Made by a program: the position numbers and the translations under genes. From a virus (lineage: Duplodnaviria; Caudoviricetes): a DNA stretch of 64,000 nucleotides. Below are positions 2,839-63,833 of this stretch, one piece after another; the stretch's first letter is position 1; every line of letters starts with the position of its first letter. Location: positions 64,001-128,000 of IMG/VR virus record IMGVR_UViG_3300012983_000001; one strand, given 5' to 3'. Under the pieces are notes generated by a model that saw nothing but the letters and a program-made list of their open reading frames with translations, had not been told where the DNA came from and made no database searches.

Positions 2839-2997
2839 TCAATCTTTTACAGTTAAGTCTGGCTTTTGCCAATCTTTTTTATCGTCAGGCTTTTCACAGT
2901 TATCTTCGATTTCCTGTGCGATATTAGCAGAAACTATAGTCTTATTGTCGTCGGTAATCTCCATGTTGCCACCAGCAATTCCTAACTTCATGCTCAT
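2839..2997 (-). CDS. Small acidic hypothetical protein (52 aa)
   Basis: Not in the ORF track. GGAGGT RBS; MSMKLGIAGGNMEITDDNKTIVSANIAQEIEDNCEKPDDKKDWQKPDLTVKD; fills the gap between its neighbours. Confidence 0.7.
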   Translation of the reverse strand: MSMKLGIAGGNMEITDDNKTIVSANIAQEIEDNCEKPDDKKDWQKPDLTVKD

Positions 2998-2998
2998 G

Positions 2999-3256
2999 TT
3001 ATCTACCTCCTATCTGGTACTGAAGTCTGTACCCCTCCAGTTCCCAAAGTTTATCCTTAATTCTTTGGATACAAATGTTCATTCCTTTGATTTCGTCATA
3101 GTTCATTGGGTCAACGCAAGCACTTGATTCTACCACTACGAATCCGTTTGGTAATTGTACCGCAACGATAGTACACTTACCAAATACGCTCTTAACAGTA
3201 ATCTGTGAACGTGAAATCAAATTATCAATCTCTGCTTGTGTAACTGTGTTCTGCAT
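2999..3256 (-). CDS. N4 Gp49/Sf6 gp66 family protein
   Basis: LPNGFVVVESSACVDPMNYD...G...C...IKDKLWELEGY signature; start at ATG 3256 (RBS AAGGAG). Confidence 0.85.
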   Translation of the reverse strand: MQNTVTQAEIDNLISRSQITVKSVFGKCTIVAVQLPNGFVVVESSACVDPMNYDEIKGMNICIQRIKDKLWELEGYRLQYQIGGR

Positions 3257-38680: not shown

Positions 38681-38694
38681 TTTCTATCCCACCT

Positions 38695-39012
38695 TTAATT
38701 TACTGCGTAATTGCCATTTGTAGTAATGTAGTAACCGTTAGACAACTTATAGAACTTGCCAAATATAACGGTGTCGATTTCCTGTACGATTTCATAAGCA
38801 ACGCCGATAGGCATCTTGCCAACGATATACTTGGTTTCCATAGTCGGCATACTTCTAAAGGATGCGGCGCTTTTTGCAATAACAGTACGACGCTTAATTG
38901 GTTCTGGTTTTGCCTCGGTAACTTTTACTAGTTCAGGAGTTACGCCCTCTACCTTTACAGGAGCTACCACTTCCTCAAGATTAGTTGTTGTGGATGTTTG
39001 TTTCTTCGCCAT
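38695..39012 (-). CDS. Small protein with an SH3b-like C-terminal domain
   Basis: SFRSMPT...IVGKMP.G..YEIV...FYKLSNGYYIT; start ATG 39012 after GAGGAGG. Confidence 0.5.
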   Translation of the reverse strand: MAKKQTSTTTNLEEVVAPVKVEGVTPELVKVTEAKPEPIKRRTVIAKSAASFRSMPTMETKYIVGKMPIGVAYEIVQEIDTVIFGKFYKLSNGYYITTNGNYAVN

Positions 39013-40375
39013 TGTCTTCTTCCTCCTCATTATAGATTTTTGAGATATGAGCTTTCAACGTTGTTTCATTTATACATAACACTGTCCACTCAGTATCGTA
39101 TTGATTAGATAATCCTGATAACTTAGGGACAGTTACAATGTACGTTCCGTACTTTTGAAGCGCATTTACGGCTGTCAAAAAGTGGCTCCAATCTACAACC
39201 ATAACGTCTTCAAACTTCATGTAGTCTTCAAATACTTCGGTCAGGTCTTCTGTCTGATTATTGTATCTATTACTAATATACAATACTTTGAAGTCTAAGT
39301 CTACATAGTTTTTATATATTATTCCTTTTACGGGAAACTGTTGCTTGATTTTCTTAAACTCTATTGTATATGTAATAGTAAACCAGTTCCAGCCTTCTTT
39401 AGTTACATCATAAGAGTTAATTACACAATCTCGCCAGTTAAGCTTTATCCTATGACCACTAGGATATACTAGAAACACTACAACGTTGTTAGGGTCATAC
39501 GCATTGCCAACTTCGATTGGTAAACCTTCGTACCAAGCATTCAGCCATATTGTTTCATGTACCGTATAAGGTACTATCATAATGGCTTCCAACAATCTAT
39601 ATCCTATTCGGATATTACCTTCATTACCTTCAGTAACGACAGGTAAGTCTATAAAAAACCATTCATCTGACGTTAAGACTCTAGTTTCTGTAGTATCAAT
39701 CGCTATTAAAAACACACCTTCGGCTCTGACTTCTTCTGCAAAGATGCGGTCACCAAGAGTTTTAATTTCACCAATATAATTTGCTTCCAGTGAAAGCAGT
39801 TTAGGAATGCCGATAACAATAAACTCTAACGGCCACGAGGTTTTTGTCGCAGGGTCAATATAAACACCTGTTTTAAGATTTTCTCCAGTCTGTGTGATTT
39901 GACAGTATTCGAAAATACAATCCTGCGGGGATATATTTAATGTTGTACCATTACTCATTTCTGCCGTAATAAGCAAATCCTTTGGATTATATTCGTCTGT
40001 AATTTCAATATCCAGACCAGTATATATCGTTGTAATGCTAACGATAGAAGGCTGAAATGTAATTTCGTAATTGATACAGATTTCTTGAGTAACAACACCC
40101 TGAGTTGGGTCATTGATATCACGAGCATATGAGCCATATAGACTAATGACGCAAGGTCTTGAAATTGTCATAGCAATTATTCCACTTGCGTCACTATACT
40201 CTGTAATCAATGTTGTTAAGTCAGGCATCGTGCCATCGTATGTTATACCATATTGGATAGATAAGTTTTCGCCTTTACATTGTTCACCATTGTCATCATA
40301 GCCTCGGATAACAATAGTGAATACTTCTGTTTGGGTTAGCCATTTATCTACTGCTGGTGATATTACTAATGCCAT
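38981..40375 (-). CDS. Virion protein with bacterial Ig-like repeats (paralog of 14841-16571)
   Basis: Three repeats of the A.Y.G..I..G..Y.P..V.V...Y..G type. Confidence 0.65.
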   Translation of the reverse strand: MALVISPAVDKWLTQTEVFTIVIRGYDDNGEQCKGENLSIQYGITYDGTMPDLTTLITEYSDASGIIAMTISRPCVISLYGSYARDINDPTQGVVTQEICINYEITFQPSIVSITTIYTGLDIEITDEYNPKDLLITAEMSNGTTLNISPQDCIFEYCQITQTGENLKTGVYIDPATKTSWPLEFIVIGIPKLLSLEANYIGEIKTLGDRIFAEEVRAEGVFLIAIDTTETRVLTSDEWFFIDLPVVTEGNEGNIRIGYRLLEAIMIVPYTVHETIWLNAWYEGLPIEVGNAYDPNNVVVFLVYPSGHRIKLNWRDCVINSYDVTKEGWNWFTITYTIEFKKIKQQFPVKGIIYKNYVDLDFKVLYISNRYNNQTEDLTEVFEDYMKFEDVMVVDWSHFLTAVNALQKYGTYIVTVPKLSGLSNQYDTEWTVLCINETTLKAHISKIYNEEEEDNGEETNIHNN

Positions 40376-40379
40376 TTAA

Positions 40380-41489
40380 TCACCCCTTGTAATTCTTGAA
40401 TCCCTTAATAGAACCATCATAGAGATGAGGAATAAAACCTACACCTGAAACATTGGATTCATTCTGGTCCCAGTAATGTTCGTTCCAATGAAAGTGGTCC
40501 CAAAAGATAGGGGATTCAGAATTCAGAATATCAATGTATTGCTTTAATTTGCTCTTTGGTTTTCCTTCAACCGTAAAGAGTTCGTTATAAAGTTTGATGT
40601 CATCACGGTTATGAAGCTGATGCATTTCTAATCCGTATACATAGCTTATTTTACAGTTTTTACGGATTTTCTTATCGGTAAAACCTTTCAGCAATACTGT
40701 GCCAGCTGCTGTCAGGAATACTCTGGATTGGTCAATGTATTCACCGTCAACTGTAATAGAATTCAATACAATCATTGCATCTTCTAGTTCTAAATCTCTG
40801 TCTGGATTGGTCCAGATAATATTACGTCTGGTTGCCAGCTCACGTCCGATACCGTTAATAAGACCATCTCTGCTAGAGTTTGCTTTATTAGTGAATACAT
40901 CCATAATACGTTTCTTATATTCAATGTTAGGTTCTTCTGGTAATCGTGGACATGATACCAAAGCTCCAAGCTCATCGAAGAAATTCCATACTTGATGAGG
41001 AACAAGAGGACGAACATGTTCTGTTCCGTCTTTAAAGATAAGCTTGATTTTTCCATTATCGTTAATAGCATCGGCGTTAAATTTCTGTCTTACATAGATA
41101 ATATTACGCTTTTCGTCGGCATAGTAAAGCTCAAACGAATGCATATTAACATCACGAATACCATTCTGGTCAATACCAAAGAATTGTTTTAACGAATCAG
41201 CTTTGATAAGCGCAGTGTTATTTGCAAAGACAGATTGAAGTTCCGATACCTTCAGCGGCATCGGAACTATTGTCTTATAACAGAAATCGACTTGACTTAT
41301 GTCAGCTGTATTAATATAGCATTGACGGTAAGCATAGTCTATAACATATCTGGCATCATCTAATTCGAGACCACATATGTTTAAGAATCTTGCCCCGATA
41401 CTGTCCTCAGATTCTTTACGAATCTTGAACCAATGAGGCAATGCATTCAATATAGCATTTGTATGTCTAGCGAATGTTAAATCAGCCAT
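40380..41489 (-). CDS. Baseplate wedge-associated protein (P2 gpI-like motif)
   Basis: NALPHWF and FDELGALVSCPRLPEEPNIEYKKRI motifs; position downstream of baseplate J. Confidence 0.55.
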   Translation of the reverse strand: MADLTFARHTNAILNALPHWFKIRKESEDSIGARFLNICGLELDDARYVIDYAYRQCYINTADISQVDFCYKTIVPMPLKVSELQSVFANNTALIKADSLKQFFGIDQNGIRDVNMHSFELYYADEKRNIIYVRQKFNADAINDNGKIKLIFKDGTEHVRPLVPHQVWNFFDELGALVSCPRLPEEPNIEYKKRIMDVFTNKANSSRDGLINGIGRELATRRNIIWTNPDRDLELEDAMIVLNSITVDGEYIDQSRVFLTAAGTVLLKGFTDKKIRKNCKISYVYGLEMHQLHNRDDIKLYNELFTVEGKPKSKLKQYIDILNSESPIFWDHFHWNEHYWDQNESNVSGVGFIPHLYDGSIKGFKNYKG

Positions 41490-48618: not shown

Positions 48619-51600
48619 TTAATCATTGAAATCTGGTTGTTCTCCACCTGTATTCTGAGAGGTTGGCATTTGTTTGATAAGCAAGATATTTTCACCATTT
48701 TTAGTACCAGATACAAATGGATATCCATCCCACCATAATGGCAACAGAACGCATACGTTTCGGTTATCGAACCAGTCAAATACATCTTCTAATAATGCAT
48801 CAATTACACAGGTAACAGCAAACCATGCAAGGGTACCAAGACCAGCACTGGATAAACCAAGTACAGCACCGCCTGTCTTAATAGCTTTCCATGTCTTTGT
48901 AATGCCCTTTGCACTTTTATATACTGTCTTTGCAGTCTTAAATGCATCTGCGGCTGTACTAACAAATTTCTTTGCTTTGACCAAATTTTTAAGGTTCTTA
49001 GCAAATTTAAAACTTGTGTATGCAAGCACGCCTGCTTGAGCAAGTTCTACAACAGAAAACGCACCGTTAACTATGTTGGCTGTCGAGTCACGTTTTTGAT
49101 TGTTATTGATAGCGCTTGTTAACTTGTCTCGCATAATTTCAAATTCTGAGAACAAGTTAAGATATTGCTCATAATTATTACGTAGCGTTCTACGTGTCTC
49201 TATATAACTAGAGAAACAATTTAGTATTCCCAGTAAGCTTTGGCATACCTGAATCATGCCACTACGGTCTTCGGTATGGAAGCCTATCATACCCAATGTC
49301 AGTGATGTTGTAAAACCTGTATTGAGACTAAAACTATGTGTAACTTCGCGCACTATTGCAAGACCATATACATCAGCAAAACTATCGTGAATCATTACAT
49401 AGTCGTGTGCTTTAATGCCTGGACATCCTGTTAAAATTAACTGTCCTTGATATTGCTGTTGCCATCCATACAGTAAATTGCTAACACCAACACGTCTTGC
49501 TGCATCTTCACCTAAACTATAAAATGTTACTTCATAGATTAAATCTGGACCCAAAGCATCTTGTACAAGTGGACTGTCAATGATTTGTGTTTTTTGATAT
49601 GCAAAATCAATCGTATCATCACTATGAATAGTTGGTGTAGAAACAACCTTGCCACCTCTGGTATACATTACCTTGGTATTTGTATTACTGAATTTCGAAG
49701 TAACTTTAACTTGATTGTCAATAATATTTGTACAATCCAATAAATGCACCTGTGCTGCGGACTTGCATTCTTCATATACTATTCCGTTTAGGTAATTATA
49801 TCTGTATTTCTCCATCCAAAATGGTAAGCCGAAATACAAACGTGAATCAAACTGATGATAAGATGGTTTTACAATAAACTCTGGTATCTGCTGTGTACTA
49901 ACCTGAAATACATCCCATGGCGTCATATTGTATTTGTTGAAGACAAAGTTCTGCTCATGGTCGTAACCAAAGTCACTGCTATATATATAGTGTTCTCCGT
50001 TATAAGATGCTTTATAAATATTCTTCATGATATCGTATTGTTCTTGTACGCCATTCCAGAAATCTGCTAAAGATACATTTCCATCAATAAGCACTCCTGT
50101 TAATGCACCAATACCAGCACCTAATAAACCACCTAAAACAACACCAATACCTGTACCAAGTGCTGTACCAACTACAGGTACAACACTTCCGATTGCAGCA
50201 CCAATAGCGCCGCCCCACTTCATACCAATAGTTGCACCACCAACGATACCACCAGCTGCGGCAATACAAATTACTAATAATCCCTTCTGATTAAAGTACA
50301 ATCCAAAATGCTCGATACCATAAGCCGAACCTTCAAATGTATCTTCCGCAAGATAATGACACCACGATTCTCGTTTAGCCATGACTTCAGCAATGATATT
50401 ACTTGCTTCCTGGTCTTCTCCTAAGCCAAACAGTCCAAGTAAGCCATTATTTGTGTCTTTTTCTTTTGCAGAGGTAACATGTTGAATAAGCTCATGCCCA
50501 TCAGATGTAACGACAATAGTAATTTGGTCACCTAATGCAACATCACTAACATGACCATTCATGACTGGGGCCAGTCCAAGAGGGTCAGAGCCATAACCAA
50601 TTCTAAGATGCACACGAGCTCCTTCACGTAATTTTGCATGACTGTAAATTACTTGTTGTAACTTAATGAGCTTATCAGTTAGTTTTGGACCAAGACCAAG
50701 CAATAAACCAGTTGCTTTGTAAAACTTACGTACCCATTCTGCATAACCTTCGTCGTTTGCAATACTATAATCGTTTAAACCTCCTTGGGTTCTGTCAAGA
50801 TTATGATATGAATTAGTTACTGTTAATGTTGCTGTTTCTGTTGGCATATCGTTTGTACCATGTACAGCAATATCGACAACAGAGCGATGTACATAATAAT
50901 TCGTCCATAATTTTCTACCGTCATACCATTGTGCATTATCATCAAGAATACAGAATAGATATGTCGGAAAAGCACGCACTAGCCTACCGCGTGCAGAATA
51001 CTGATATTCGTCACAAAACATTGTGTTACAAATGTTTAAGCCGTCATTTAGATATTCCATGGCATTTGTTTTGTTCGTTTCATTATTCCATGGAGCCCAA
51101 TTGTCGTCATAAATCATTGCCTCTGTTTTTGCCAATACAGGTTCTGCAAAACGTTTGATATCTTTAATAGTTTTTGCATTATGTAATAAAGTATATGCTT
51201 CTTTCAGTTCATTACTAGATGCCGTTCCTATATTTGGGTCACTAATAATACTATACTTAATATTTGAACCTGCTGATTCTGCTCCCCAGAATACATGAAT
51301 GCCAGCTTCACCAATTCTATCATATACCTCGTCTCGTTGAGCAATAGTAATAGCTGCATTATTAGCATCTGGCGTTAGGAAATACCAGATTTGTGCATCA
51401 TTCCAGTGCTTCTTTCCTTTAGTAAATACCTCTCTAACAATGTCTGCAACGGAATGCTCAACTACACCTTGGTAATTGGTTTTAAATTGTCCTTCGCCGT
51501 TTAAGATATTGGACAGACCGCCAAATTTCTTTTCTGGGTGAGTAAGTCTATCATAAATTACCTGCGCAACAGCTCGTTGCGCATCTTCATCTTCACCAAG

Positions 51601-54396
51601 AGTTTCTGCTGCAACAACCTTACAAATAGCTTCGAACTCTGATGTAGTTAATGTGTACTGTGACACTACCGATGAAGAATCTGAGAAGAACAATGTTTTT
51701 TCTTTGTTTCGTCTATTTATAAGTCCCTGCTTAGCATAACTTGCAGTTCCCCAATACAATGGTAAATTGTTACCGATATCTTCAATCGTTTTACTAACAA
51801 CCAAAAGAGAGTCTGCGTTTTTATTGTGGAACCCTCTATTATAGAAATACGATGTTAATGCTAATACTTGATTATTAGTGAAATCACTAGTGTTCCAACC
51901 GTATTGCTCTAATTTAGATAACGTCTTTGGAATCATTGACTCTAATTCCAATGTCAAATAATGTTCTGCATCTTCTTTAGACATTGTCATGCCAGATGTA
52001 ATTTTAACATCTTGAGTTCCATCAAAATAGGTATTATGGAAGCCATATCCAATATCTATACCACCATCTCTTGGTTCCGCTGTGCCTAAAAATCCCTCCC
52101 AGTCCTTCACCATGTCAACAAAATCTTGTGTAACATGGAAACCTGTAGTATTGGTAGCGGATGACGCTTTTGATGTTTTAATGAATGCTTTTGGTCTAAA
52201 ACATCGTCCGTTCTTAAAATACTGTGTATCTTTCTTAACGCCACCAATAGGATATGGACTACTGTTTGCTGCATGAACAATAGAATTATTTCCTTCATAC
52301 ACAACAGTATGTGTTAAATCACTATTGCAAAGGACGTCGCCACGTTGCATTTGGTTCCATGGGACTTCAATGAAGTGTTGCGAACTAGGAATTGTATCTA
52401 CTGTCAATCTGCCTTCATCTTTTGGCATTGCGCCTATTTTCTGTAACAGATAAGTTACAAAACCAGAGCAATCAAAACATAAGCCTTTTGCATCAGATAC
52501 TTCACCTTCTGCACCCCACTTATAGGTATGTCCAATAAAACTATTGGCGCAAGTAATAAATGCTTCAATTAAGTCTGTTGCGTAAGTTTCTCCATTATAA
52601 TTAGGAGTATGAATGACTTCTCGTGTTTTACTGTATGACTTCATGTGTTTTGGTTGGTAACCATAATATGTGTCATTACCTTCTTCAAGTTCACTTAAAT
52701 AGAATGATAAGTAAGAACAAGAATAGAATACATAGAAATCAGGGTCAACATAAATATCATACTCCAACTTACTTGTGTCAATGTCATCTGTATATGCTAT
52801 ACCGTGGCTAACATTCTTTACAGAGATATTATTACCTGGATGGCTTCCATGTAACATACCCATTGGATTTTTTGGATACTTTGTATAAGGTAATTTAGTT
52901 AAGTTATTTTTCTTTCTAAAGTCAATACAATTACGAATAAATGCATCAACTTCATTGTATGTAGGCAAATGTAAGTCAGGATAAACTTCCATAGAAGTTC
53001 TAATCTTCCATTCTGCATAGTTGTCTTGTTTAATTTTAATCTCCAATCCCTGTATGCTTTGTTCGATAGTTTGATTTGAATATCTTTCGTCATCACCGCC
53101 ATGCACATGGTCAGGATTAAAATCATTGTCGTCACAATCTTCACAGTCGAACGGTCTGAACCCATGCAGTTGTTCTCGTGAAGACTGTGCAATATCATAC
53201 GCGATACAGTTCATTTGTACGTTATATAATCCAGGAAAACCTGGAACCGTATTTGTAACTACGGAATCAATTAACACGAACAATGAACCAGTAAAAGAAA
53301 CTAATTCAGATTCCAATTTAACAAAACCTACGGAATGTACTTTGGCATTATTTCTTATCAACAAATCATTTGATATTTGACATTGTTCTAATGCTTGTAC
53401 GACGCTATAGTCAGTTGTTTCCATAGTAATGCTGTAGATAGTATCCATGCCACCAATGTATTGGATAGTTGGACTGGAAATATCAGATAGCTGAATATTG
53501 GTTAAAATGTTGGAATAACCGCACTGAAATGCTGTAATAACTACATCTGATTCAGCACTATCTAACCATGTGATGTAATTGGAGTCTTCTTCTGTCACTT
53601 TGTATTCATCACAGATAATAGAGAGCATATTAGATTCTGTTGCTTTTTCTGAGTTAAAAACAGCATCACTCAAAACACTAATCTTGAATCTATTATGTTC
53701 GCTATTAGCAGGTAAGCTTTGTAACTTTTTGTAAACATGTGTTTCTGTTAAAAATCTTTGATAATAAAATCTAAATAAATCCCAGTCAATCATGTATTTA
53801 AAACATACATCTGGCATTTCCAGATATGGATACATATTGACTTCCTGCAATGTAATTTGAGCTGTCATTGCGTTCGGAAAGCCTTGCATAGTAGACATGG
53901 TAATAGACTGTAAAGCGACAGTAAAAATACCGTACATACCATTAACTAGTTCGTTCGAAATTGGTAAAAACGGTGTACATTTAAACTGCGCCAATAATTG
54001 TCTTAAGCCGTCTACATAATAAGTCCCTTCTGGACCAGGTACTGCATAACCATTCAGTTGTTCTAATCCATTAAATACAAGGTCTATCAGAATAGTACGT
54101 TTGTGATGACCTGCTTTCATTTTCTGGGTATTCTCCTGTCTCAGAGTAACAAGACTCTGAGACGTTGATTCGGAGCTTACCATTATAAATTCAGGAGGTA
54201 TCATGAAATACGTATCACCTATCTGAAGATTGTATTCATCATACATATATCTGTGAGGATATAATACATTGTCCAGCGCATCCAATGGTTCAATGCGTCG
54301 CTCGTCTTTAATTCTGGAAAACTTATCAATCATTTGTAATCCAGTGACGGTATCTTCAATACTTATCAAGTCTGCATTGTTATACTTGATTCCCAT
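48619..54396 (-). CDS. Baseplate hub / tail-associated lysin with NlpC/P60, GH24-like lysozyme and SleB-like hydrolase domains plus a glycine zipper
   Basis: YKWGA..FDCSGF..HTVVY..VHA; WEGF..IGYG..ALTSYFYNRG..GLINRRNKE; VAAET.GE...AVAQVIYDR..GQF..HVF; hub-like GARVHLRIGYGS and G.PGIK.HD...V.EVTHSFS..GFTT. Confidence 0.85.
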   Translation of the reverse strand: MGIKYNNADLISIEDTVTGLQMIDKFSRIKDERRIEPLDALDNVLYPHRYMYDEYNLQIGDTYFMIPPEFIMVSSESTSQSLVTLRQENTQKMKAGHHKRTILIDLVFNGLEQLNGYAVPGPEGTYYVDGLRQLLAQFKCTPFLPISNELVNGMYGIFTVALQSITMSTMQGFPNAMTAQITLQEVNMYPYLEMPDVCFKYMIDWDLFRFYYQRFLTETHVYKKLQSLPANSEHNRFKISVLSDAVFNSEKATESNMLSIICDEYKVTEEDSNYITWLDSAESDVVITAFQCGYSNILTNIQLSDISSPTIQYIGGMDTIYSITMETTDYSVVQALEQCQISNDLLIRNNAKVHSVGFVKLESELVSFTGSLFVLIDSVVTNTVPGFPGLYNVQMNCIAYDIAQSSREQLHGFRPFDCEDCDDNDFNPDHVHGGDDERYSNQTIEQSIQGLEIKIKQDNYAEWKIRTSMEVYPDLHLPTYNEVDAFIRNCIDFRKKNNLTKLPYTKYPKNPMGMLHGSHPGNNISVKNVSHGIAYTDDIDTSKLEYDIYVDPDFYVFYSCSYLSFYLSELEEGNDTYYGYQPKHMKSYSKTREVIHTPNYNGETYATDLIEAFITCANSFIGHTYKWGAEGEVSDAKGLCFDCSGFVTYLLQKIGAMPKDEGRLTVDTIPSSQHFIEVPWNQMQRGDVLCNSDLTHTVVYEGNNSIVHAANSSPYPIGGVKKDTQYFKNGRCFRPKAFIKTSKASSATNTTGFHVTQDFVDMVKDWEGFLGTAEPRDGGIDIGYGFHNTYFDGTQDVKITSGMTMSKEDAEHYLTLELESMIPKTLSKLEQYGWNTSDFTNNQVLALTSYFYNRGFHNKNADSLLVVSKTIEDIGNNLPLYWGTASYAKQGLINRRNKEKTLFFSDSSSVVSQYTLTTSEFEAICKVVAAETLGEDEDAQRAVAQVIYDRLTHPEKKFGGLSNILNGEGQFKTNYQGVVEHSVADIVREVFTKGKKHWNDAQIWYFLTPDANNAAITIAQRDEVYDRIGEAGIHVFWGAESAGSNIKYSIISDPNIGTASSNELKEAYTLLHNAKTIKDIKRFAEPVLAKTEAMIYDDNWAPWNNETNKTNAMEYLNDGLNICNTMFCDEYQYSARGRLVRAFPTYLFCILDDNAQWYDGRKLWTNYYVHRSVVDIAVHGTNDMPTETATLTVTNSYHNLDRTQGGLNDYSIANDEGYAEWVRKFYKATGLLLGLGPKLTDKLIKLQQVIYSHAKLREGARVHLRIGYGSDPLGLAPVMNGHVSDVALGDQITIVVTSDGHELIQHVTSAKEKDTNNGLLGLFGLGEDQEASNIIAEVMAKRESWCHYLAEDTFEGSAYGIEHFGLYFNQKGLLVICIAAAGGIVGGATIGMKWGGAIGAAIGSVVPVVGTALGTGIGVVLGGLLGAGIGALTGVLIDGNVSLADFWNGVQEQYDIMKNIYKASYNGEHYIYSSDFGYDHEQNFVFNKYNMTPWDVFQVSTQQIPEFIVKPSYHQFDSRLYFGLPFWMEKYRYNYLNGIVYEECKSAAQVHLLDCTNIIDNQVKVTSKFSNTNTKVMYTRGGKVVSTPTIHSDDTIDFAYQKTQIIDSPLVQDALGPDLIYEVTFYSLGEDAARRVGVSNLLYGWQQQYQGQLILTGCPGIKAHDYVMIHDSFADVYGLAIVREVTHSFSLNTGFTTSLTLGMIGFHTEDRSGMIQVCQSLLGILNCFSSYIETRRTLRNNYEQYLNLFSEFEIMRDKLTSAINNNQKRDSTANIVNGAFSVVELAQAGVLAYTSFKFAKNLKNLVKAKKFVSTAADAFKTAKTVYKSAKGITKTWKAIKTGGAVLGLSSAGLGTLAWFAVTCVIDALLEDVFDWFDNRNVCVLLPLWWDGYPFVSGTKNGENILLIKQMPTSQNTGGEQPDFND

Positions 54397-54410: not shown

Positions 54411-57400
54411 CTACATAAGTTCTGCAAACTTATTAGCAAGCCAGTTATCTGTTACACCACTAGTGTCAGCCTGACTATATACTGATGTATTGCCACCACC
54501 AGACATACCGATAAGCTTTGCATTATTCATGTCGTTAATATAATTTTGTGTTTTAGCTGAAACGTTGAAGTTAAAACCAGATGCTCTATCATGATACACT
54601 GTCGCTTTTTTAGACATCGGAGCCTGTTGTGGTCTAGGGCTTCGTGTTTCTGGCTGATTGTTATTATTGTTTCTTGCTGGTGTTAATGGTGATTGAGCTT
54701 TGTCATTATGTAATAAATTATTTGCAACGCCTAACGCAGCCATAGAAGCAACAGCAATACCAATAGTTTTCTTTGGCATTTTACCGAAAGCATCTTTGGT
54801 ACTTTGCCAGAACTGTCCAGAAACAGTTTTCTTTTTAACGTGTCTTTCTGCGGCACGTTTAACTGCTTCTTGTACTTGTTCTGGAGTGCGGGTTTCTAAT
54901 GCGTCATGTACTGCACCAATAGCTTTTTTGTGTTCCGCAATTAAGTCATTGACTAATGGTGTGTTTTTCAATCCGCTATGAGCTGATGTTTGTGCAACAG
55001 GACGATAATTTGATAACGCATTTAACGTATTTGTTAATGCATATGCTTCGGTATGGCTCATTGTCTTAATAGATTTTTGAGCTTCTATACCAGCCTGCTG
55101 TATCTCTTGAATATCAGTCATTACCAGAGAATCGAAACGTTTACCAATGAAATCACCAAAGCCTACAATAGAATCATCAGAAGGTTGTTTCCATCCAAAG
55201 AATGCATCCATCTGCGCTTCTGATTGAAATAATGCATAAATGTCTTGTTGTGTTTTTTTGATAACTGGCTGGTTCTCTGCCTTTAACTTTGTAATAATCT
55301 CATCAGCTCGTTGCATGGAATTATCAACAATGTCTTGTAATGACTTAAGTTCATCATCAGAAACGCCTTGATGACGTAAGCCATCTAATTCCACTTGTAC
55401 GTTAGCAAAACTGCCTTCAATGTTTCTTCGCTCTTCTATTATATCATAGGTGTTCTTCTTTAAAAAGTCTAAAGTTTCTTGATATGTTTTTTTATCGAAA
55501 AAATCCATTAACTGTGCTTCGGATGCATAACGTTCAAGGTTTTCTTCACTACCGAAACGTTGAATTAATTCCTTACGAAGAATTGTATCATATTCTTCGT
55601 CAAAGATAAATCCCCTTTCTTCGTCTCTACTTCTCGGATTGTCTGCAATCTGTTTATTGATTGATTTAATCAATTCTCCAGCGGACGATGGGTCTTTTCT
55701 GGTATCAAAGAAACCTTTGCTTACAGCATAATCATATGTCTGAGCTAATCTGTTAATGTTTGCATAGATAACTGGAGTGGTACGGCCCGCAGTTTTACTA
55801 CCAATAAGAAGCTGATTTACTCCCTGCCATGCAGAACCATATTTAGCTAAACCATTTCTTGTTTCTCCAATTTTCTTAAACGACTGAGGTAATTCAGTAA
55901 GCACCTTGCCTTCATCATCTAATAAGACACTATTAAGTGTTTTTTCGAATTTACGTTTTGTTAATCCACTTGATGTTCTTTCCTGTAATGATATAGACTC
56001 CATGTAGTCTTGAATATTAACACCATGGGATAATACGCTTTCAAACGTTCTTTTGGTACTAAAAGGCTTACCGATTTCTTTACCTGTTGATAAATCTATT
56101 TCGACGAAACGGTTATTGCCTTTATAGATATAGCTTTTATCTTGCCATCTATCAAGAGTGCCAATATCAAAATAAATATCGTTAACGGTATATGGGTCTT
56201 TTGGAGCACTGAAGGAATTAGCAAAGATATCAAGTACATTGTAAAAACCTGTACCAACATATCGTTCGGATAACTTATCAAGACCTTGTTTATTCAGTTC
56301 TTCAATAGTATGGTAAATAGATTCATCCAGAGACCCATGAAGCAACCTGTCGGCGTAATATTTATGGAAATCTGGAATTTCTTTTTGTACATCCAACAGT
56401 CTACGCAATGTTCTTAAATTCTCCAGGTTTGCTGTTTTCTGACCTGCATCTTTTGCTGACTGTATTGCACGATTGAAATCTTCCAGAGTACTATTGACAA
56501 CTAAACGTGCCATGTCATCTAACTCTCTATCAGATGCTTTAAACAATCCAGAATTGACCGCTTCAAGTATATTACGAATACCCTTCATATTGCTTTCTGG
56601 AGAATGCTTACTGTTACCAAATAACAGCGACATACCTGTAGAATAACGTGTTGTTTTTGCAATTCTTAAACCGTCATCTGCGTGCTTTACGTCGATACTC
56701 TTCTGCTCTGTTTCACTAAAGAAACCACCAGCTTTAGAAAGCATATTACTCAAACTTACATAAGTATCATTAAGTAATTGTTTTTGAGATAACGCTAATT
56801 TTGGGTCGGTCATTGCAGTAAGCAATGCATTTCTCATAGTGTAGTTTGGAGTAGAAATACTACCAATGTTCTTTTTACGGAAACGAGATGCAATAGAAGC
56901 AATAATCGAGTCTTCATCTGTCATGGTATTAAACTTCATGTGTACAAATGTATCATGCATTTGCTTTGATGTTTCCGCAGCAAAGATTTGAGCATCGCTA
57001 AGATTATCAATAGAGGATACACGAATGCTGTTATCTTTAGCCCATGCCATAATAGCACTTTCATACTCTTTAGGTTTCATTTTTTTAAGCATTGCTGCAT
57101 ATTGTCTGGTACTTGCATTTGGGTCATCTGAACCAAAAAGACCAATATCATTAACAAGCTCTGCTAATAAAGAACGAGACTCTCGTGCCGCAAAACGATT
57201 ATAAATTTCAGTAGCAGTATCAAAAACTTGCGTTCCATTAATCTTTGTATCTGTTCTGATGATACTCATACCGTCTGTCAGTATAGACAAGAATTGTTTA
57301 TCGCCATCGAAGTCAACATTATTTAAGGACGAGAATACAGCACTAGAACCACGTACTTGTGTACCAGTTAAAGTAGTATCAAGAATTACTCTTGTCATAG

Positions 57401-60400
57401 CTTGGCTTCGGAATGTTGGATAACGAGTAATTTCACCGAAAGTACCAACTTCAGAAAGATACATTGTGCCGATTTCTTCATCGAACACTTTAAGAATACT
57501 ACCTTGTTCGCTATTAATAATAGCTTGATTCAATGCTTTAATGTCTAATCCGCCAGGTGTTTGGCCATATCGTCTAGCTACAAAATCATTTAACTGACCT
57601 GTAATGGATTTCTTGGAATCAATGTGCAATCCTTCAATGTTCAGTGCATTTAATTTTCTAGCTATTGTTGTTTTACGACCAGCAAATTTGTGATGATATT
57701 CTTTGATACGTTCAAACTTATAGTTCCCAGTTTCCCAGTCGCTGTACGCTTGTAATCCTACGGCACCAACACTAATGCCTTGACGCTCAAAGGCTTCTTT
57801 ACTTATGGCAACAGCTAAACCATATTGCTTTTTGCCATCTATCATGACTTCAGCGGCCTTACGAAGATTGTCGTTACTACTTAAGGACATCAGTTCTGAA
57901 TAATAACTATCATCTTCTAGTATACGTTTTGAAATCTTTGACAGCTCTTTTTTAAGTGGCGCATATACTTCATCTTCTAATTCTTTAATGACTGCTTTAT
58001 TGTCAGGATTGATTTTAAGAATGCGTTCTAATCTATCTTTACGCTTCTTTAAAGCCTTAAGCTCAGGTGTCATCATTGCTTTAACTAAAGGAGATGCTTC
58101 ATCCTGTGCAAGTAATTCTTGAGACGTTGGCATGATATATTGCTGGAATGCTTTATAAACGTCTCCTTGCTTATCCAAGAAACCGAGTTGCTTAGATAAA
58201 CTAGTCATTGTGGAAGAATATGCTGCACTTAAAGCTTGTTTTATACCACCCTGTTTTGTGTATCTACTAGGGTTTGTTGTAATGTCAATTAATTGATTTA
58301 CGAAGTGTGAAACTGTACTTTGTTGACTCTGGAAGTATGTCTTGTCGGTTGCGCCAGTAAATACAGTCTGAATCGGAATCATTACGCCTTTAAAGTCACG
58401 ATATCCGAATTTATCTTTAACGGAAAACGAAACGTCGTTTAGGTCAATAAAGATACTATATGATTTATTATCAAGGTTTACACCAGACTTACGAGCGGCT
58501 TTCTTTAAGAAATCACTAGGCTTGCCATCTACGAAGAAAATAGAATTACGTAATTCCTTAGTAGTCATACCGCCTTTTAAACGGCTCGATTCATCAATTA
58601 AGTCGTTAATGTTAATATTAACAATATTCTTACCTTCAGCGCCGTATTTTTCTGGATTGTAATAATACATCAGTGATTCAACAATGCCTTTAGCGCTACG
58701 CTGAATTTCTGATTTACCATTTAATAAATGTATTCTATTTGCATTTTTCTGTTGACCGTATACATTGATGTATTGCTGTAAGTCTGTCTGGTCATTTTGA
58801 GCCAATCCAGTTCCTTGTGCATTATAATGTTCAGAGTAATATCTTAAGGTATCTGCCCATTCATTGTCGATTGGGTCTATGCCATCACCGCCCATTTGCA
58901 TACCACGAGTACGAATACCTTGTTCAATTCTTTGGTCATATACCATTCTGGTACCCATGTGTTCATTCATACTTTGTCTTTGAATACGAGCATTATACGT
59001 GCCAGTGGCATACATTTCTTCAATTTCTTCTACGATTGATTCGTTGATACTTGTGGATAAGATGGTATTATTCTTAATCTGGTCATATAACGTCTCAATA
59101 GCATAGCTAAAATTGTGAGCGTCGCTACTTGATGAAATAATATGTCCATCAATAAACTGAAACTTGTTTATGCCACGGAATGCTGGATTAGCTTCAGTAA
59201 TCATTCTATTCAAATGATTAACTAATGCTTGTCCCTGACCACGTTCTGTATACTGAGAAGTAATAGTATTCCATAAGGAATGGGTAGAAACAATATTACC
59301 ATGCTTCTCAAGGCCAAGATTTGCCATTACCACAGCGCCATCAGATACTTTTGCAAATAAGCTATTAGCAACACGTAATGCTTTTTGGCTGTCTGTAATG
59401 CCAGTGTACTCCATAAACTTTGTCATGTTTATACTGTGTACAGTACCTTTTTCTGCACCGTTAATCATGATTTTTGTATCAGCAATATCGCCATGTAATG
59501 GAATTACACTACTAGAACCCCAATCAAAGAATTCATCAATGTTTTCGCGTGTAAATACTGTATCAGGACCGTCATAGTAAATAAGCGTGTCATCTGGCGT
59601 TATTGCAATAGGAGTATCTCGTGTTACTACAGTTCCGTCGTGCGCTAAACGAGCAAGCATACTTTTACTACGCGCTTCGTCGACAATATCTTTGTCGAAC
59701 ATAATCTTTTTACCATCTTTAGCTTGGAATAATTCTTGTTCATTTAAACCAGGCGCAATGAATATCTTACCCTCATGTAAAGACATGAATTCTTGTTCAA
59801 AATATTCAACAGCTTTACCGTAACGAGATTCTGAAATGCCCAACTGTTTTGCCATTGCGACGTCTTCTTCAAGTTCTTGATAACGCATGATTAAATCGTA
59901 ATCATTGATTTGCTTTACTCTTGCAATCATTGAACGTTCTCTTAATGCGTAATCTTCTCCATCTATTGGCTGATATCCAGATGCCGCTAATGCCATTTTA
60001 TCTTTGTATTCTTTTTCTGTAATAACGTTAGTACCAACACGTAATGCATGTTCTTCAAAGCCGATGAATTTTTTCATATCGAATCTGCTTGGTGAGAACC
60101 ACATGCTATTATTTTGCTGATGATAAGTAGGTCTTAATGTACTGTATAAACTTGCCGCATCGTTGTAGTCGCCAGGACGTACATATGAAACAATGCCTTT
60201 TTCACTTGCAGATTCTGATAATACTTGGTTAATACCTTTGGTTTGAATTTTCTTTAATGCCTCACCTACGGACTGGTGGAAGGTATGAGTCGTATCTCGT
60301 TCTACGGTTTCAGTAATAATATCAAAAATGTTCTTATCAAATTCTGGTCCAGAGATAATGCCCTGTAAAGAAATATCACTAGCGACAGTACCAGTAAACA

Positions 60401-63400
60401 ATCGTTTCATGAAGAATTCTTTAAACTCAGTATTATTAGCAACTCGCATTAAGTATTCGGTTGCATGGCGTCCTTCTGTAATCGCTAAACCAGATGCTTT
60501 ACCGAATGCTTCAACAACTTTTTGTGCGGTATTCAGGTTATCTGCTGAATCAATAGCTACAGCGGCCTTGAAGATAGAATACAATCCTTCACTCACTTTT
60601 GCTTCATACGCCTGAATAAAATCACTTGGCGTGAATTCTGCAATACGACGTACAACTTTTTTGCCATCTACTTCAGTAATGTAGCCTCTATAAGATGCGG
60701 AGGCAGATAAATCATCCAAATATCTATTTTGAGCACGACGTACAGCATCTGTTGCTGCTCTGTATTCTCCATGTAACGTATGTTCAATAGCATGGCCATT
60801 TGCCATTCTAATGGTAGATAAGAATCCATACTCACCACTATTATAGTATGCCGCAAGTGTTCCATCACTAAAATCACGAACTTGTAATTCTGGAATGATA
60901 ATCTTTTCCATTGAACCAGTGTGTCCTTGTGTGATGGTACGTAATGTACCTTCGCTTAACTGGTATTCGTTAATTTTAGGTATCTCAATAAATGATGCAT
61001 AATCACTGATAGATTCTGCACCAACAACTGCACTATGATACTGTTCTGGGTCCAATAAAGTATAACGATTAGTAAAGTCAAATTTACCATCCATAAGAGC
61101 AGTATAAAATCTATTCATGTCCTGTTCTCTGGTCATAAACAGATATGCATTACCGTCTTCTGGTTGCGCAATAAATGCACGCAAACCCTGGTCAAGATAG
61201 TTGTTAATGGCATAACTAGTTGGCTCGCCATTGCTTGTTGTCTTATTGAATAATTCTATAAGTAACTTAGCTTCATCACTATTTGGAGCAATGTTAAGTT
61301 TAGAAGCAATGGTGTTCATGTGATTTTCAAATGCTTCTCGATTTGCATAACGACTGCTAACATAGAAAGTTTCTGGTCTCTCAGCGATTGCATCACGAAT
61401 AATGTCTTGCATATCGGTTTTTGATGCCTCATAGACTTCACTTAGTTTCAGCGTCTTTTTACCTCTTGGTTTCTTGTATTGAATAATTGCGTCACTTTCA
61501 AGGTCCACACCTAACAAATGCATGTTTTTACGTTTGCCACTTGCTGCAAAAACATTATCAATACTTTGAGTTGCACTTGTATATTTGTCCATATATCCAG
61601 ATATTGCATAACCGAGGTCTTGCGAAATGCTATACAATTCATCCGCAGGCAAAGAGGTCATTTGTTGATAAGCTCGTTGGAATGCCTCTTCGTCAAGTAT
61701 GCCGCGTTTATTAAGGTCTGTTAAAATAGTCTGCGCTTCGCTAATATCAAGACCTTGAAAGATTCTATTGATATCATATGTTATTGTATTTGCACTGTAA
61801 CCATTGATTCTGCGAATACTACCATCTGGCATTTCCACATCAATACCAAGAGCGTCAGACATTACTGCATATGATTCTTTAGCTGAATATCTTTCGTATT
61901 TGTTATCAAGATAAGCCATTGCTTGTGTGTATGCTCTCTGTACATCAATAGTTTTATCCATGTTGTTTGCATTACCATGCGTGGCTTGTACTGTTTCAAC
62001 GATTTGACGAAGTAATGGTCTTTCATTTTGAAGCTTATCATACATACCCACGAAAGCCTGGGCCTGATAATGACTTCTAATTGGTACAGGACTAGGGTTT
62101 TCTGCATTGTAATGTGTTTCAACATATCGCATTAACTCTCTAGCGGATTCACTAGTTGGCTTAATATCAAAACGTTCTTCAGCAGGTAGACTATCTAAAT
62201 CATCCATGAATTTTAAGTATTGTTGTAACGTTTCAAAACCATAGATATTGTCTTTACCATCTAAACCAACATTAACTGGGTCAATTAACTTACTAAATTC
62301 TCTACGACCAAAATCTCTATAATGAAATGCTTGTTGTTTTATCGCATCACCAGAAGTTACTTGTGCGCTAGTAAAAATACTTGAGTTATGCACTAATGTT
62401 TCTAATGCTTCTGTTTCAGAACCATACACTAAAGAGACCTTAGTAGTTCCATCGTCTACAAGGTTATCAAGCGTTAAAACATATTTGGTTTCGCCATCCA
62501 GCTCTACATAATGAGAATGTTCTTTATCAATGGTCCAATATTCATTTGTAAAAGAATAATTAGGCACAGGACTACCGTCAATAATGGCCATGTCTTGCGC
62601 ATGTTTGTGCTGTAAAGAGCCTCTATGAATTAAAAATATACTATCGTCAATGGTACTTTGAGATTTATATGAATCTGCAAAATCTTGTAATTGCTTAGTA
62701 CCATCCAGGACTTCTTGCATACGAATATCCAATAAGCGTCCTTCATTATCAACATCGGCATCACCTCGATGTATCTGTGACGCATTAATGCGTGTTACTC
62801 GTAATTGTTCATCTACAGAAGCACCTGCTCTAGTACCATATGTATTTTCAAAATATGAATTCACTGACTGCGAATTACTAGCTGCCAATGCTCTTGCTGA
62901 ATAGATAACGTCTAATATACTACCTCTAACAGAAGCGATTTCACTTGCATCAACACCTAATACTTTTGCTGTATTTACGAGTGCGTCTATATCAAATTGA
63001 CTATTTGCACCAAAAAGTACAGCGTTATCGTCATGAATAGCATCAGTAATTTCACCAATCAACATCGGTAATAGTTCATTTGGCTTTGCAACTTGATATG
63101 CATTATGTAAATTTTTGATACCTGCCCTAAATGCTGTGGCTGTACGAGTTTCTGCTGATAATTCACCAGCTACTTTAAAAGTTCTGCCATCAACTACTTC
63201 ATTACGGATAGCATCGCGACCACTATACATGCTTATACGTTTTAACGTAGTTTGCTCTGCATTATCACGCTCATTAAGACCATCCCAGCCAACTTTTTCA
63301 AACTTGTCAACTAAGCTTAATAAATAATCTCTTTGGGCATCATTAATACCAAAAATATACGAACGACCTGTGCGTGTTACATTACCACTATTATCATAAA

Positions 63401-63815
63401 TACGTGTACCAATCGCAAGCTCAGTTATACCAAACTGAGCTGCGTCTGTACCAGGTTTAGTAATATTACCAAATGTTTCTAAGTCGAAACCTAATGCACG
63501 TCCGCCATTTTGACGAATCTGTGCAAATTTTTGCCATTCATCCATTGCATCAAGGGTTTGCAAAACAGCCTTGTTGTCCCTGGAATCAAGCATTCTAAAT
63601 AAACCATCTAGTGGGAAAGAAGAAGGTTGTTTAGAATGGTTCCATATTTGATTAAAGTTTGCTTCAAGACGTTCAGTACGGGCATTCCAGAAATCATCGT
63701 ATGTACCATTACCTTGTTCTACCCATTCGTTCGAAGTAAGACCATTAATTTTAAATACATTGTTTTGTCTTGCCCATATATCATGTAATCTAAAATTAAA
63801 TCCATAGACGTCCAT
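54411..63815 (-). CDS. Giant single-chain two-barrel RNA polymerase with an N-terminal DEDDh exonuclease domain (putative virion RNAP)
   Basis: D111-x-E113, N271..D275, H349-x4-D354; K1448-x7-K1456-G; R2131-Y-P; N-V-D2168-F-D2170-G-D2172; C-terminal hydrophobic helix. Confidence 0.8.
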   Translation of the reverse strand: MDVYGFNFRLHDIWARQNNVFKINGLTSNEWVEQGNGTYDDFWNARTERLEANFNQIWNHSKQPSSFPLDGLFRMLDSRDNKAVLQTLDAMDEWQKFAQIRQNGGRALGFDLETFGNITKPGTDAAQFGITELAIGTRIYDNSGNVTRTGRSYIFGINDAQRDYLLSLVDKFEKVGWDGLNERDNAEQTTLKRISMYSGRDAIRNEVVDGRTFKVAGELSAETRTATAFRAGIKNLHNAYQVAKPNELLPMLIGEITDAIHDDNAVLFGANSQFDIDALVNTAKVLGVDASEIASVRGSILDVIYSARALAASNSQSVNSYFENTYGTRAGASVDEQLRVTRINASQIHRGDADVDNEGRLLDIRMQEVLDGTKQLQDFADSYKSQSTIDDSIFLIHRGSLQHKHAQDMAIIDGSPVPNYSFTNEYWTIDKEHSHYVELDGETKYVLTLDNLVDDGTTKVSLVYGSETEALETLVHNSSIFTSAQVTSGDAIKQQAFHYRDFGRREFSKLIDPVNVGLDGKDNIYGFETLQQYLKFMDDLDSLPAEERFDIKPTSESARELMRYVETHYNAENPSPVPIRSHYQAQAFVGMYDKLQNERPLLRQIVETVQATHGNANNMDKTIDVQRAYTQAMAYLDNKYERYSAKESYAVMSDALGIDVEMPDGSIRRINGYSANTITYDINRIFQGLDISEAQTILTDLNKRGILDEEAFQRAYQQMTSLPADELYSISQDLGYAISGYMDKYTSATQSIDNVFAASGKRKNMHLLGVDLESDAIIQYKKPRGKKTLKLSEVYEASKTDMQDIIRDAIAERPETFYVSSRYANREAFENHMNTIASKLNIAPNSDEAKLLIELFNKTTSNGEPTSYAINNYLDQGLRAFIAQPEDGNAYLFMTREQDMNRFYTALMDGKFDFTNRYTLLDPEQYHSAVVGAESISDYASFIEIPKINEYQLSEGTLRTITQGHTGSMEKIIIPELQVRDFSDGTLAAYYNSGEYGFLSTIRMANGHAIEHTLHGEYRAATDAVRRAQNRYLDDLSASASYRGYITEVDGKKVVRRIAEFTPSDFIQAYEAKVSEGLYSIFKAAVAIDSADNLNTAQKVVEAFGKASGLAITEGRHATEYLMRVANNTEFKEFFMKRLFTGTVASDISLQGIISGPEFDKNIFDIITETVERDTTHTFHQSVGEALKKIQTKGINQVLSESASEKGIVSYVRPGDYNDAASLYSTLRPTYHQQNNSMWFSPSRFDMKKFIGFEEHALRVGTNVITEKEYKDKMALAASGYQPIDGEDYALRERSMIARVKQINDYDLIMRYQELEEDVAMAKQLGISESRYGKAVEYFEQEFMSLHEGKIFIAPGLNEQELFQAKDGKKIMFDKDIVDEARSKSMLARLAHDGTVVTRDTPIAITPDDTLIYYDGPDTVFTRENIDEFFDWGSSSVIPLHGDIADTKIMINGAEKGTVHSINMTKFMEYTGITDSQKALRVANSLFAKVSDGAVVMANLGLEKHGNIVSTHSLWNTITSQYTERGQGQALVNHLNRMITEANPAFRGINKFQFIDGHIISSSSDAHNFSYAIETLYDQIKNNTILSTSINESIVEEIEEMYATGTYNARIQRQSMNEHMGTRMVYDQRIEQGIRTRGMQMGGDGIDPIDNEWADTLRYYSEHYNAQGTGLAQNDQTDLQQYINVYGQQKNANRIHLLNGKSEIQRSAKGIVESLMYYYNPEKYGAEGKNIVNININDLIDESSRLKGGMTTKELRNSIFFVDGKPSDFLKKAARKSGVNLDNKSYSIFIDLNDVSFSVKDKFGYRDFKGVMIPIQTVFTGATDKTYFQSQQSTVSHFVNQLIDITTNPSRYTKQGGIKQALSAAYSSTMTSLSKQLGFLDKQGDVYKAFQQYIMPTSQELLAQDEASPLVKAMMTPELKALKKRKDRLERILKINPDNKAVIKELEDEVYAPLKKELSKISKRILEDDSYYSELMSLSSNDNLRKAAEVMIDGKKQYGLAVAISKEAFERQGISVGAVGLQAYSDWETGNYKFERIKEYHHKFAGRKTTIARKLNALNIEGLHIDSKKSITGQLNDFVARRYGQTPGGLDIKALNQAIINSEQGSILKVFDEEIGTMYLSEVGTFGEITRYPTFRSQAMTRVILDTTLTGTQVRGSSAVFSSLNNVDFDGDKQFLSILTDGMSIIRTDTKINGTQVFDTATEIYNRFAARESRSLLAELVNDIGLFGSDDPNASTRQYAAMLKKMKPKEYESAIMAWAKDNSIRVSSIDNLSDAQIFAAETSKQMHDTFVHMKFNTMTDEDSIIASIASRFRKKNIGSISTPNYTMRNALLTAMTDPKLALSQKQLLNDTYVSLSNMLSKAGGFFSETEQKSIDVKHADDGLRIAKTTRYSTGMSLLFGNSKHSPESNMKGIRNILEAVNSGLFKASDRELDDMARLVVNSTLEDFNRAIQSAKDAGQKTANLENLRTLRRLLDVQKEIPDFHKYYADRLLHGSLDESIYHTIEELNKQGLDKLSERYVGTGFYNVLDIFANSFSAPKDPYTVNDIYFDIGTLDRWQDKSYIYKGNNRFVEIDLSTGKEIGKPFSTKRTFESVLSHGVNIQDYMESISLQERTSSGLTKRKFEKTLNSVLLDDEGKVLTELPQSFKKIGETRNGLAKYGSAWQGVNQLLIGSKTAGRTTPVIYANINRLAQTYDYAVSKGFFDTRKDPSSAGELIKSINKQIADNPRSRDEERGFIFDEEYDTILRKELIQRFGSEENLERYASEAQLMDFFDKKTYQETLDFLKKNTYDIIEERRNIEGSFANVQVELDGLRHQGVSDDELKSLQDIVDNSMQRADEIITKLKAENQPVIKKTQQDIYALFQSEAQMDAFFGWKQPSDDSIVGFGDFIGKRFDSLVMTDIQEIQQAGIEAQKSIKTMSHTEAYALTNTLNALSNYRPVAQTSAHSGLKNTPLVNDLIAEHKKAIGAVHDALETRTPEQVQEAVKRAAERHVKKKTVSGQFWQSTKDAFGKMPKKTIGIAVASMAALGVANNLLHNDKAQSPLTPARNNNNNQPETRSPRPQQAPMSKKATVYHDRASGFNFNVSAKTQNYINDMNNAKLIGMSGGGNTSVYSQADTSGVTDNWLANKFAELM

Positions 63816-63833
63816 TCTAAATTCCCTCCTGTT

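Follow-up and report, generated by a model that had tools for sequence, protein, structure and literature searches.

What use would a phage have for one protein that carries both a 3'-5' exonuclease and an RNA polymerase (RNAP)? The question is raised by a 64,000-nucleotide stretch of viral DNA, hereafter the window, that spans bases 64001-128000 of the complete 208,433-bp virus record IMGVR_UViG_3300012983_000001 (Duplodnaviria; Caudoviricetes), and in which a single minus-strand open reading frame (ORF) encodes a protein of 3134 amino acids (aa), here called P0001. The N-terminal part of P0001 contains the motifs and the predicted fold of a DEDDh exonuclease, a candidate two-barrel RNAP core lies some 1,300 residues beyond, in the centre of the chain, and the gene stands where Bacillus phage 0305phi8-36 encodes its tape measure protein. 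P0001 is one of ~50 exonuclease-RNAP giants that occupy this tape-measure slot, a family not previously described, in 0305phi8-36-like jumbo phages.

Exonuclease motifs, conservation and predicted fold

The ORF and its exonuclease region contain the following features (window coordinates; epsilon is the DnaQ subunit of DNA polymerase III, Pol III).

54411..63815, minus strand: giant ORF P0001, with a DEDDh exonuclease N-terminal, a putative two-barrel RNAP core central and a tape-measure-like module C-terminal
63825..63830, minus strand: Shine-Dalgarno sequence AGGAGG, 7 nt 5' of the ATG at 63815
62682..63542, minus strand: predicted DEDDh (DnaQ/RNase T-like) exonuclease fold, aa ~92-378, from the predicted structure
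63468..63497, minus strand: Exo I, ALGFDLETFG, aa 107-116, with D111, E113, T114 and G116 invariant; compare DTETTG in epsilon and DVETAG in RNase T
63408..63431, minus strand: strand-2 motif GITELAIG, aa 129-136, with E132 invariant; compare IIEIG in epsilon and LLEIA in RNase T
62988..63017, minus strand: Exo II, LFGANSQFDI, aa 267-276, with N271 and D275 invariant; compare HNAAFD in epsilon and HNANFD in RNase T
62910..62912, minus strand: D302 in LDVIYSAR, invariant, collinear with the strand-5 xD(T/S) motif (TDSL in epsilon, FDTA in RNase T)
62751..62774, minus strand: Exo III, IHRGDADV, aa 348-355, with H349-x4-D354 invariant; compare HGALLD in epsilon and HSALYD in RNase T

The five conserved blocks (DxETxG, I-x-E-h-a, NxxFD, xD(T/S) and Hx4D) are collinear with those of E. 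coli epsilon and RNase T, whose sequences were taken directly from the E. coli K-12 genome; relative to both, P0001 has an insertion of roughly 70-100 aa between Exo I and Exo II. An earlier note, made from the letters of the window alone, had placed the catalytic residues of such a domain at D111/E113, D275 and H349-x4-D354, and all five are found at exactly these positions in the ORF translation. The interval it gave for the domain, 62740-63510 (aa ~102-359), falls inside the folded unit, which is slightly larger (~62682-63542).

Relatives of aa 60-420 were sought by a word-indexed search and by an exhaustive phmmer search over 1.84 billion representative proteins, giving ~50 sequences, nearly all of them proteins of 3100-4200 aa in which the similarity falls at the corresponding N-terminal position. 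When the domain was aligned across 37 sequences (mean column identity 26%), the sole invariant columns were D111, E113, T114, G116, E132, N271, D275, D302, H349 and D354. Across a full-length alignment of 45 sequences, conservation of at least 90% is reached at only 88 of 3134 positions, and D111, E113, T114, E132, N271, D275, D302, H349 and D354 are each present in all 45. With so few positions conserved overall and the catalytic ones conserved without exception, the exonuclease motifs represent more than chance resemblance.

An AlphaFold2 model of aa 1-460, built from a 10-sequence alignment, has a predicted local distance difference test score (pLDDT) of 85-95 across aa 90-380. In this model D111-L-E113 lies on the first predicted strand (105-116), N271-S-Q-F-D275 follows a strand at 265-269 and opens the helix 272-286, and H349 and D354 stand at the start of helix 351-371; the predicted topology of aa ~92-378 is that of a DEDDh, RNase H-like alpha/beta fold of DnaQ type. 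When the model was compared with the PDB using Foldseek, all six matches at E <= 0.001 were RNase T (best E 1.6e-4, probability 1.0), followed at lower rank by the DnaQ domain, TREX1/2, Exo I, Orn, PARN, ERI3 and the exonuclease domains of family-B polymerases. Structural relatives in a separate ranking include epsilon, a polymerase exonuclease domain, RNase T, 3'hExo, Orn, ERI, Cap18 and TREX. Aligned by hhalign against the single E. coli RNase T and DnaQ sequences, the family paired the right motifs at an E-value of only 0.04, with ANSQFD set against HNANFD and QxHxxxxD against QAHSALYD (H181-x4-D186 of RNase T). Clusters named after PF00929 appeared at a score of 0.88 in an ESM Atlas feature search, and these we treat as leads only. 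Profile hidden Markov models (HMMs) of the exonuclease and RNAP regions found nothing relevant among PDB sequences, and the exonuclease family profile had no match in the E. coli K-12 chromosome.

Judging from the model, we have very little doubt that the DEDDh fold is real, and the conserved residues make it probable that the domain is catalytically active. The earlier note had tied its assignment to a predicted RNase H-like DEDD fold and to acidic residues conserved among homologues; that fold is indeed predicted, for aa ~92-378, and the five catalytic residues are invariant in the 45 homologues.

Putative RNA polymerase core, tail gene order and co-occurrence

The central part of the same chain contains a second set of conserved motifs.

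59448..59474, minus strand: candidate lysines of a beta-like barrel, K1448...E1455-K1456 (K-x7-K), invariant in 45/45
57417..57425, minus strand: R2131-Y-P2133, corresponding to NRxP of beta' and placed 37 residues N-terminal of DFDGD; R2131 in 44/45 and P2133 in 45/45
57300..57314, minus strand: metal-binding DFDGD (D2168/D2170/D2172), its aspartates and G2171 in 45/45
56556..59676, minus strand: modelled RNAP core region, aa 1380-2420, with pLDDT 86.5 and a predicted template modelling score (pTM) of 0.82, from a 40-sequence alignment

The K-x7-K arrangement has the spacing of the RNAP beta-subunit lysines. When the core model was compared with 48,161 chains, the two best matches were QDE-1 and RDR2, and the QDE-1 structural alignment covers model residues 63..1022, spanning K1448/K1456. 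In a Foldseek search the top 50 rows were all RNAP large-subunit chains, from cellular beta' and its phiKZ counterparts, with weak E-values (best 8e-3). On these motifs and models P0001 is very likely to carry a single-chain two-barrel RNAP of the QDE-1/crAss gp66 type at aa ~1440-2380. The earlier note had described the exonuclease as joined, at the N-terminal side, to a putative two-barrel RNAP. That description is supported by the invariant motifs and by structural similarity to QDE-1, RDR2, gp66 and cellular RNAPs; the carrier is not simply an RNAP, since its gene occupies the tape-measure slot of a 0305phi8-36-like myophage.

Between the exonuclease and the RNAP core (aa ~380-1000, window 60800-62680, minus strand) there are further conserved residues, D501, R504, R505, G526, T622 and D654. 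This region aligns with aa 24-830 of gp034 of Bacillus phage vB_BauM_KLEB27-3, a relative described below.

Neighbouring proteins of P0001 match families of 0305phi8-36, and the gene order (tail sheath, tube, tube paralogue, two small genes, a two-gene chaperonin pair of 183 and 242 aa with cross-matching families, the 1990-aa protein, the 3134-aa giant and a 1925-aa hub/endolysin) equals that of 0305phi8-36 gp139-gp147. In that phage the chaperonin is split between gp143 and gp144; gp145, of 1930 aa, is a virion protein; gp146, of 2537 aa, is the tape measure protein, which mass spectrometry has found in virions; and gp147 is the hub and endolysin (PMC2147016). The arrangement of chaperonin pair, ~2000-aa protein, exonuclease-RNAP giant and ~2000-aa hub is kept in three homologue contigs, down to ~20% identity. 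A crAss-like phage was considered as the source and rejected, the neighbours including a tail sheath and the tail gene order being that of 0305phi8-36.

P0001 and gp146 share their gene position and may share their C-terminal end.

54411..54848, minus strand: C-terminal module, aa ~2990-3134, a hydrophobic segment followed by G3080...D3117, W3125-L3126 and an NWLxxKF end, aligning with 0305phi8-36 gp146 and present in KLEB27-3 gp034

The family profile is collinear with only the last ~140 aa of gp146 (domain E 1.1e-5 in a two-sequence search, 9.5 bits), which echoes the published remark that gp146 aligns with its prophage counterparts over the last 60 residues only (PMC2147016). The module is possibly a hub-docking or membrane-insertion end. 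Taken with the synteny, it makes P0001 a likely tape-measure-like virion protein.

Both enzyme domains are present in all 45 aligned giants. A separate search with the RNAP core returned 22 matches, every one of them an exonuclease-bearing giant of the same kind, and by pattern match seven new ones among them show most or all of the exonuclease motifs. The earlier note had proposed a survey of whether homologous giant RNAPs keep the exonuclease; all those examined, in both sets, do. No shorter RNAP-only relatives were found, and the exhaustive search of representative proteins for a stand-alone exonuclease gave only the giants and short sequences, most of which resemble N-terminal fragments of giants. 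There was no match to either region by tblastn against 50,697 phage records, and sequence-pattern scans of genome and viral contigs revealed no relatives.

One member of the family comes from a cultured phage and was missed by BLAST, being recovered by a profile search.

OM634661.1 35003-42307: Bacillus phage vB_BauM_KLEB27-3 gp034, 2434 aa, in the tape-measure slot, annotated 'structural protein'

The family HMM matches gp034 at E 3.4e-36 across the exonuclease and the following region; the protein has its own DxE, NxxFD and Hx4D motifs, RYP...DYDGD at aa 1933 (domain E 6e-9) and the C-terminal module. Unlike these giants, gp146 of 0305phi8-36 has no DxE/Hx4D exonuclease motifs, no DxDGD and no RNAP match, and neither family profile matches anywhere in the 0305phi8-36 genome. 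The slot thus holds a protein with both enzymes or, in 0305phi8-36, with neither, which fits a task shared by the two; this is a single contrast within one syntenic lineage. In Moorella phage MTATph1 (OR602862.1 30512-37868) the tape-measure-slot region is apparently interrupted by a transposase gene, and the exonuclease profile matches its 1309-aa CDS0027 weakly (E 0.0019) at ~aa 850-950, away from the N-terminus.

Possible roles of the exonuclease

The sole published precedent we found for a two-barrel RNAP in a tape-measure-position protein is gp96 of Thermus phage P23-45, a tape-measure-fused virion RNAP for which ejection and first transcription have been demonstrated (PMC10770324 / 10.1101/2022.12.01.518664). 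Like P0001, gp96 is a giant protein in the tape-measure position with a single-chain two-barrel RNAP bearing DFDGD and with a hydrophobic segment, and its genome likewise holds a second, non-virion two-barrel RNAP. The two differ in layout: in gp96, a siphophage protein, the RNAP is N-terminal (DFDGD at 779-783) and accompanied by a metallopeptidase domain, with no exonuclease, whereas in P0001, from a contractile-tailed jumbo phage, the DEDDh domain comes first and the RNAP occupies the centre (DFDGD at 2168). A comparison of gp96 with the 3134-aa giant revealed no sequence similarity. The nearest characterised relatives of the giant's RNAP are gp66, the virion RNAP of crAss-like phage phi14:2 (PDB 6VR4), and Neurospora QDE-1.

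Polymerases paired with a dedicated 3'-5' exonuclease occur elsewhere, in nidoviruses (the DEDDh exonuclease nsp14 ExoN with the RNA-dependent RNA polymerase) and in archaeal PolD (the Mre11-like exonuclease DP1 with the two-barrel DP2). These are functional analogies only; templates and products differ, and there is no homology beyond the superfamily level. Our reading of the open-access literature took in crAss gp66, the P23-45 papers and the supplements of the latter, surveys of jumbo phages and of polyvalent proteins and two 0305phi8-36-related papers; in these neither this family nor any virion or tape-measure RNAP with a DEDDh domain is described, and nothing was found on KLEB27-3. Neither the domains of the giants nor the principle of their delivery is new; the combination is, and it is strictly conserved.

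Virion-delivered two-barrel RNAPs, namely crAss gp66 and P23-45 gp96, are recent discoveries. Both gp66 and QDE-1 transcribe single-stranded or denatured DNA efficiently and native double-stranded DNA (dsDNA) poorly (10.1101/2020.03.07.982082), which raises the question of how a virion RNAP obtains a usable template on freshly injected dsDNA. Because these nearest relatives prefer single-stranded DNA, our best guess, and a tentative one, is that the exonuclease processes the 3' end of entering phage DNA to provide a single-stranded template; as this is the least certain step, the explanation as a whole is held no more firmly.

According to this proposal the C-terminal module would load the protein into the tail, from which it would pass into the cell before the DNA, in the manner of P23-45 gp96, to serve as the virion RNAP that makes the first transcripts, a separate YonO-like RNAP serving later. 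In tape measure proteins the N-terminus is the head-proximal end, and the N-terminal DEDDh domain would adjoin the leading DNA terminus and exit the tail last. There, as a Mg-dependent 3'-5' exonuclease, it could engage the 3' end of the entering DNA and resect or trim that strand, leaving the RNAP with single-stranded template or with a defined place to start, and the Cas4/RecE-like PD-(D/E)XK nuclease on the preceding 1990-aa giant may take part and could supply the opposite polarity. A co-inherited 3'-5' exonuclease on the RNAP chain, beside such a giant, suggests a self-contained machine that opens the DNA end and transcribes it. The suggestion is testable, and cultured KLEB27-3, through gp034, offers an experimental handle on the family.

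Several observations weigh against this account, at different steps. In the PF00929 profile search that the earlier note had proposed, significance was not reached: P0001 has no Pfam match at all, only two of the 37 family members touch PF00929 (best E 0.042), four of 37 touch the Rv2179c-like family (best E 0.024), and PF00929 has no match across the whole 208-kb genome; Pfam and PHROGs searches with P0001, with aa 1-450 or with aa 60-400 gave nothing meaningful. We attribute the missed threshold to sequence divergence and not to a missing catalytic feature, since by sequence and model the domain shows each DEDDh catalytic motif and fold feature that was tested and falls short only of the Pfam score. 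Compared with the DEDDh exonucleases of PF00929 (Pol III epsilon/DnaQ, the PolC-type domain, Cas2-DnaQ and RNase T), it stands below that threshold, contains the insertion noted above (~70-100 aa) and is embedded in a 3134-aa virion-type protein. That the five catalytic residues cluster in space is deduced from the predicted topology. The proposed location in the virion draws on synteny, on mass spectrometry of gp146 in a distant relative and on the unverified 'structural protein' label of KLEB27-3 gp034. The exonuclease lies >1,000 residues from the RNAP core, and direct cooperation is therefore not implied by the architecture. As to substrate, DNA-acting chains of DnaQ type head the structural ranking by only 1-2.5 Z units, which does not distinguish DNA from RNA. 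Finally, the first 123 bases of the record recur at its very end, a 'direct terminal repeat' that is an assembly overlap and does not mark the physical termini, on which the geometry of end resection relative to the early genes would depend.

The strict co-inheritance of the two enzymes in all ~50 homologues, together with the absence of both from the 0305phi8-36 tape measure, fits a shared task better than it fits independent cargo, and this makes it rather unlikely that the domain is a counter-defence or host-takeover nuclease for which the RNAP merely shares the delivery vehicle. Possible targets of such a nuclease are host DNA at its nicks or ends, the 3' ends of RNA, cDNA made by retrons or DRT systems, and linear signalling oligonucleotides. 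It would suit a slot whose products enter the cell first, the neighbouring giant bears another nuclease domain, Cap18, TREX and Orn are among the structural relatives, and ejected giant phage proteins often mix unrelated conflict enzymes (PMC5512222); we found no specific similarity to any known anti-defence nuclease. Strict co-occurrence with the RNAP would also suit a transcript 3'-end nuclease that serves the polymerase on its chain by clearing RNA 3' ends that are misincorporated or backtracked, or by trimming transcripts, and the DEDDh family is rich in RNA 3' exonucleases (RNase T, 3'hExo, Orn, ERI); no Gre/TFIIS-like factor is evident, though no test was aimed at one. We nevertheless regard this role as improbable, because the active site of two-barrel RNAPs itself cleaves backtracked RNA, a brief burst of pre-early transcription needs little fidelity, the domain is far from the RNAP core, and DNA-acting domains of DnaQ type are slightly favoured among the top structural matches. 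At least as improbable is the narrower version in which the domain is a dedicated RNA 3'-end editing nuclease for the two-barrel RNAP; if true, this would be the first DNA-dependent RNA polymerase with a fused DnaQ-type module for proofreading or backtrack rescue, a DNA-phage counterpart of coronavirus nsp14-nsp12.

General tape-measure topology would place an N-terminal domain near the DNA end, where it might only bind the 3' end, anchoring the leading end of the genome to the tape measure, or it might aid tail assembly. A non-catalytic role of this kind is very unlikely, as the metal ligands and the general-base histidine are invariant among sequences of only 20-30% identity, which argues for selection on catalysis and not on mere binding. 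We give least credence of all to a part in replication, in which the domain, perhaps released by cleavage, would be the epsilon-like proofreading partner of the phage's DnaE-type polymerase. The genome does encode a DnaE-like Pol III alpha; apart from the divergent domain studied here it shows no exonuclease of PF00929 type, and the structures that match best include epsilon and a polymerase exonuclease domain. Against this, 0305phi8-36 has a Pol III-type polymerase with neither a PF00929 match nor this domain, so that the two are not distributed in a complementary way, and the domain is always found within a tail-cluster giant and co-inherited with the RNAP. Processing of the DNA 3' end for the RNAP on the same chain is the reading we retain, with the reserve stated above. 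DNA-end resection, transcript proofreading and the degradation of defence oligonucleotides, the three functions that the earlier note had suggested, all stay at the level of proposals.

Flanking giants and other polymerases

The genes on either side of P0001 encode large proteins with enzymatic domains of their own.

48619-54396, minus strand: 1925-aa protein with NlpC/P60, phage lysozyme and Hydrolase_2 domains, orthologue of 0305phi8-36 gp147 (phrog_20474, E 1.7e-252)
63834 onwards in the window (genome 127834-133806), minus strand: preceding giant of 1990 aa, in which aa 1202-1348 form a Cas4/RecE-like PD-(D/E)XK nuclease domain (phrog_1706, E 3e-10)

The start ATG of P0001 lies 18 nt past the stop codon of the 1990-aa ORF. 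The same PD-(D/E)XK domain is found in the 2073-aa counterpart of this giant on a distant homologue contig (E 4e-14) and was not detected when searched for in 0305phi8-36 gp145. The 1990-aa giant also has a weak DUF3854/Toprim-like match at aa 1447-1530.

Elsewhere in the genome, a 1285-aa YonO/RdRP-like protein (193154-197011, plus strand; PF05183, E 7e-20) with DHDGD at aa 704 is a second RNAP, the candidate non-virion one, and the counterpart of 0305phi8-36 gp99; no sequence relation is detectable between it and the RNAP core of the giant. A pair of RNAPs of which only one belongs to a virion-type protein has parallels in P23-45 and in phiKZ-like phages. The DnaE-type DNA polymerase III alpha is encoded at 37786-41250 on the plus strand (PF07733, E 1.5e-72). 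The stretch is present in two animal-gut metagenome DNA runs from one study, with no RNA run listed. Genes of the genome as a whole fall into two blocks, one on the plus strand from ~185 kb through the origin to ~65 kb, the other on the minus strand from ~65 to 185 kb.

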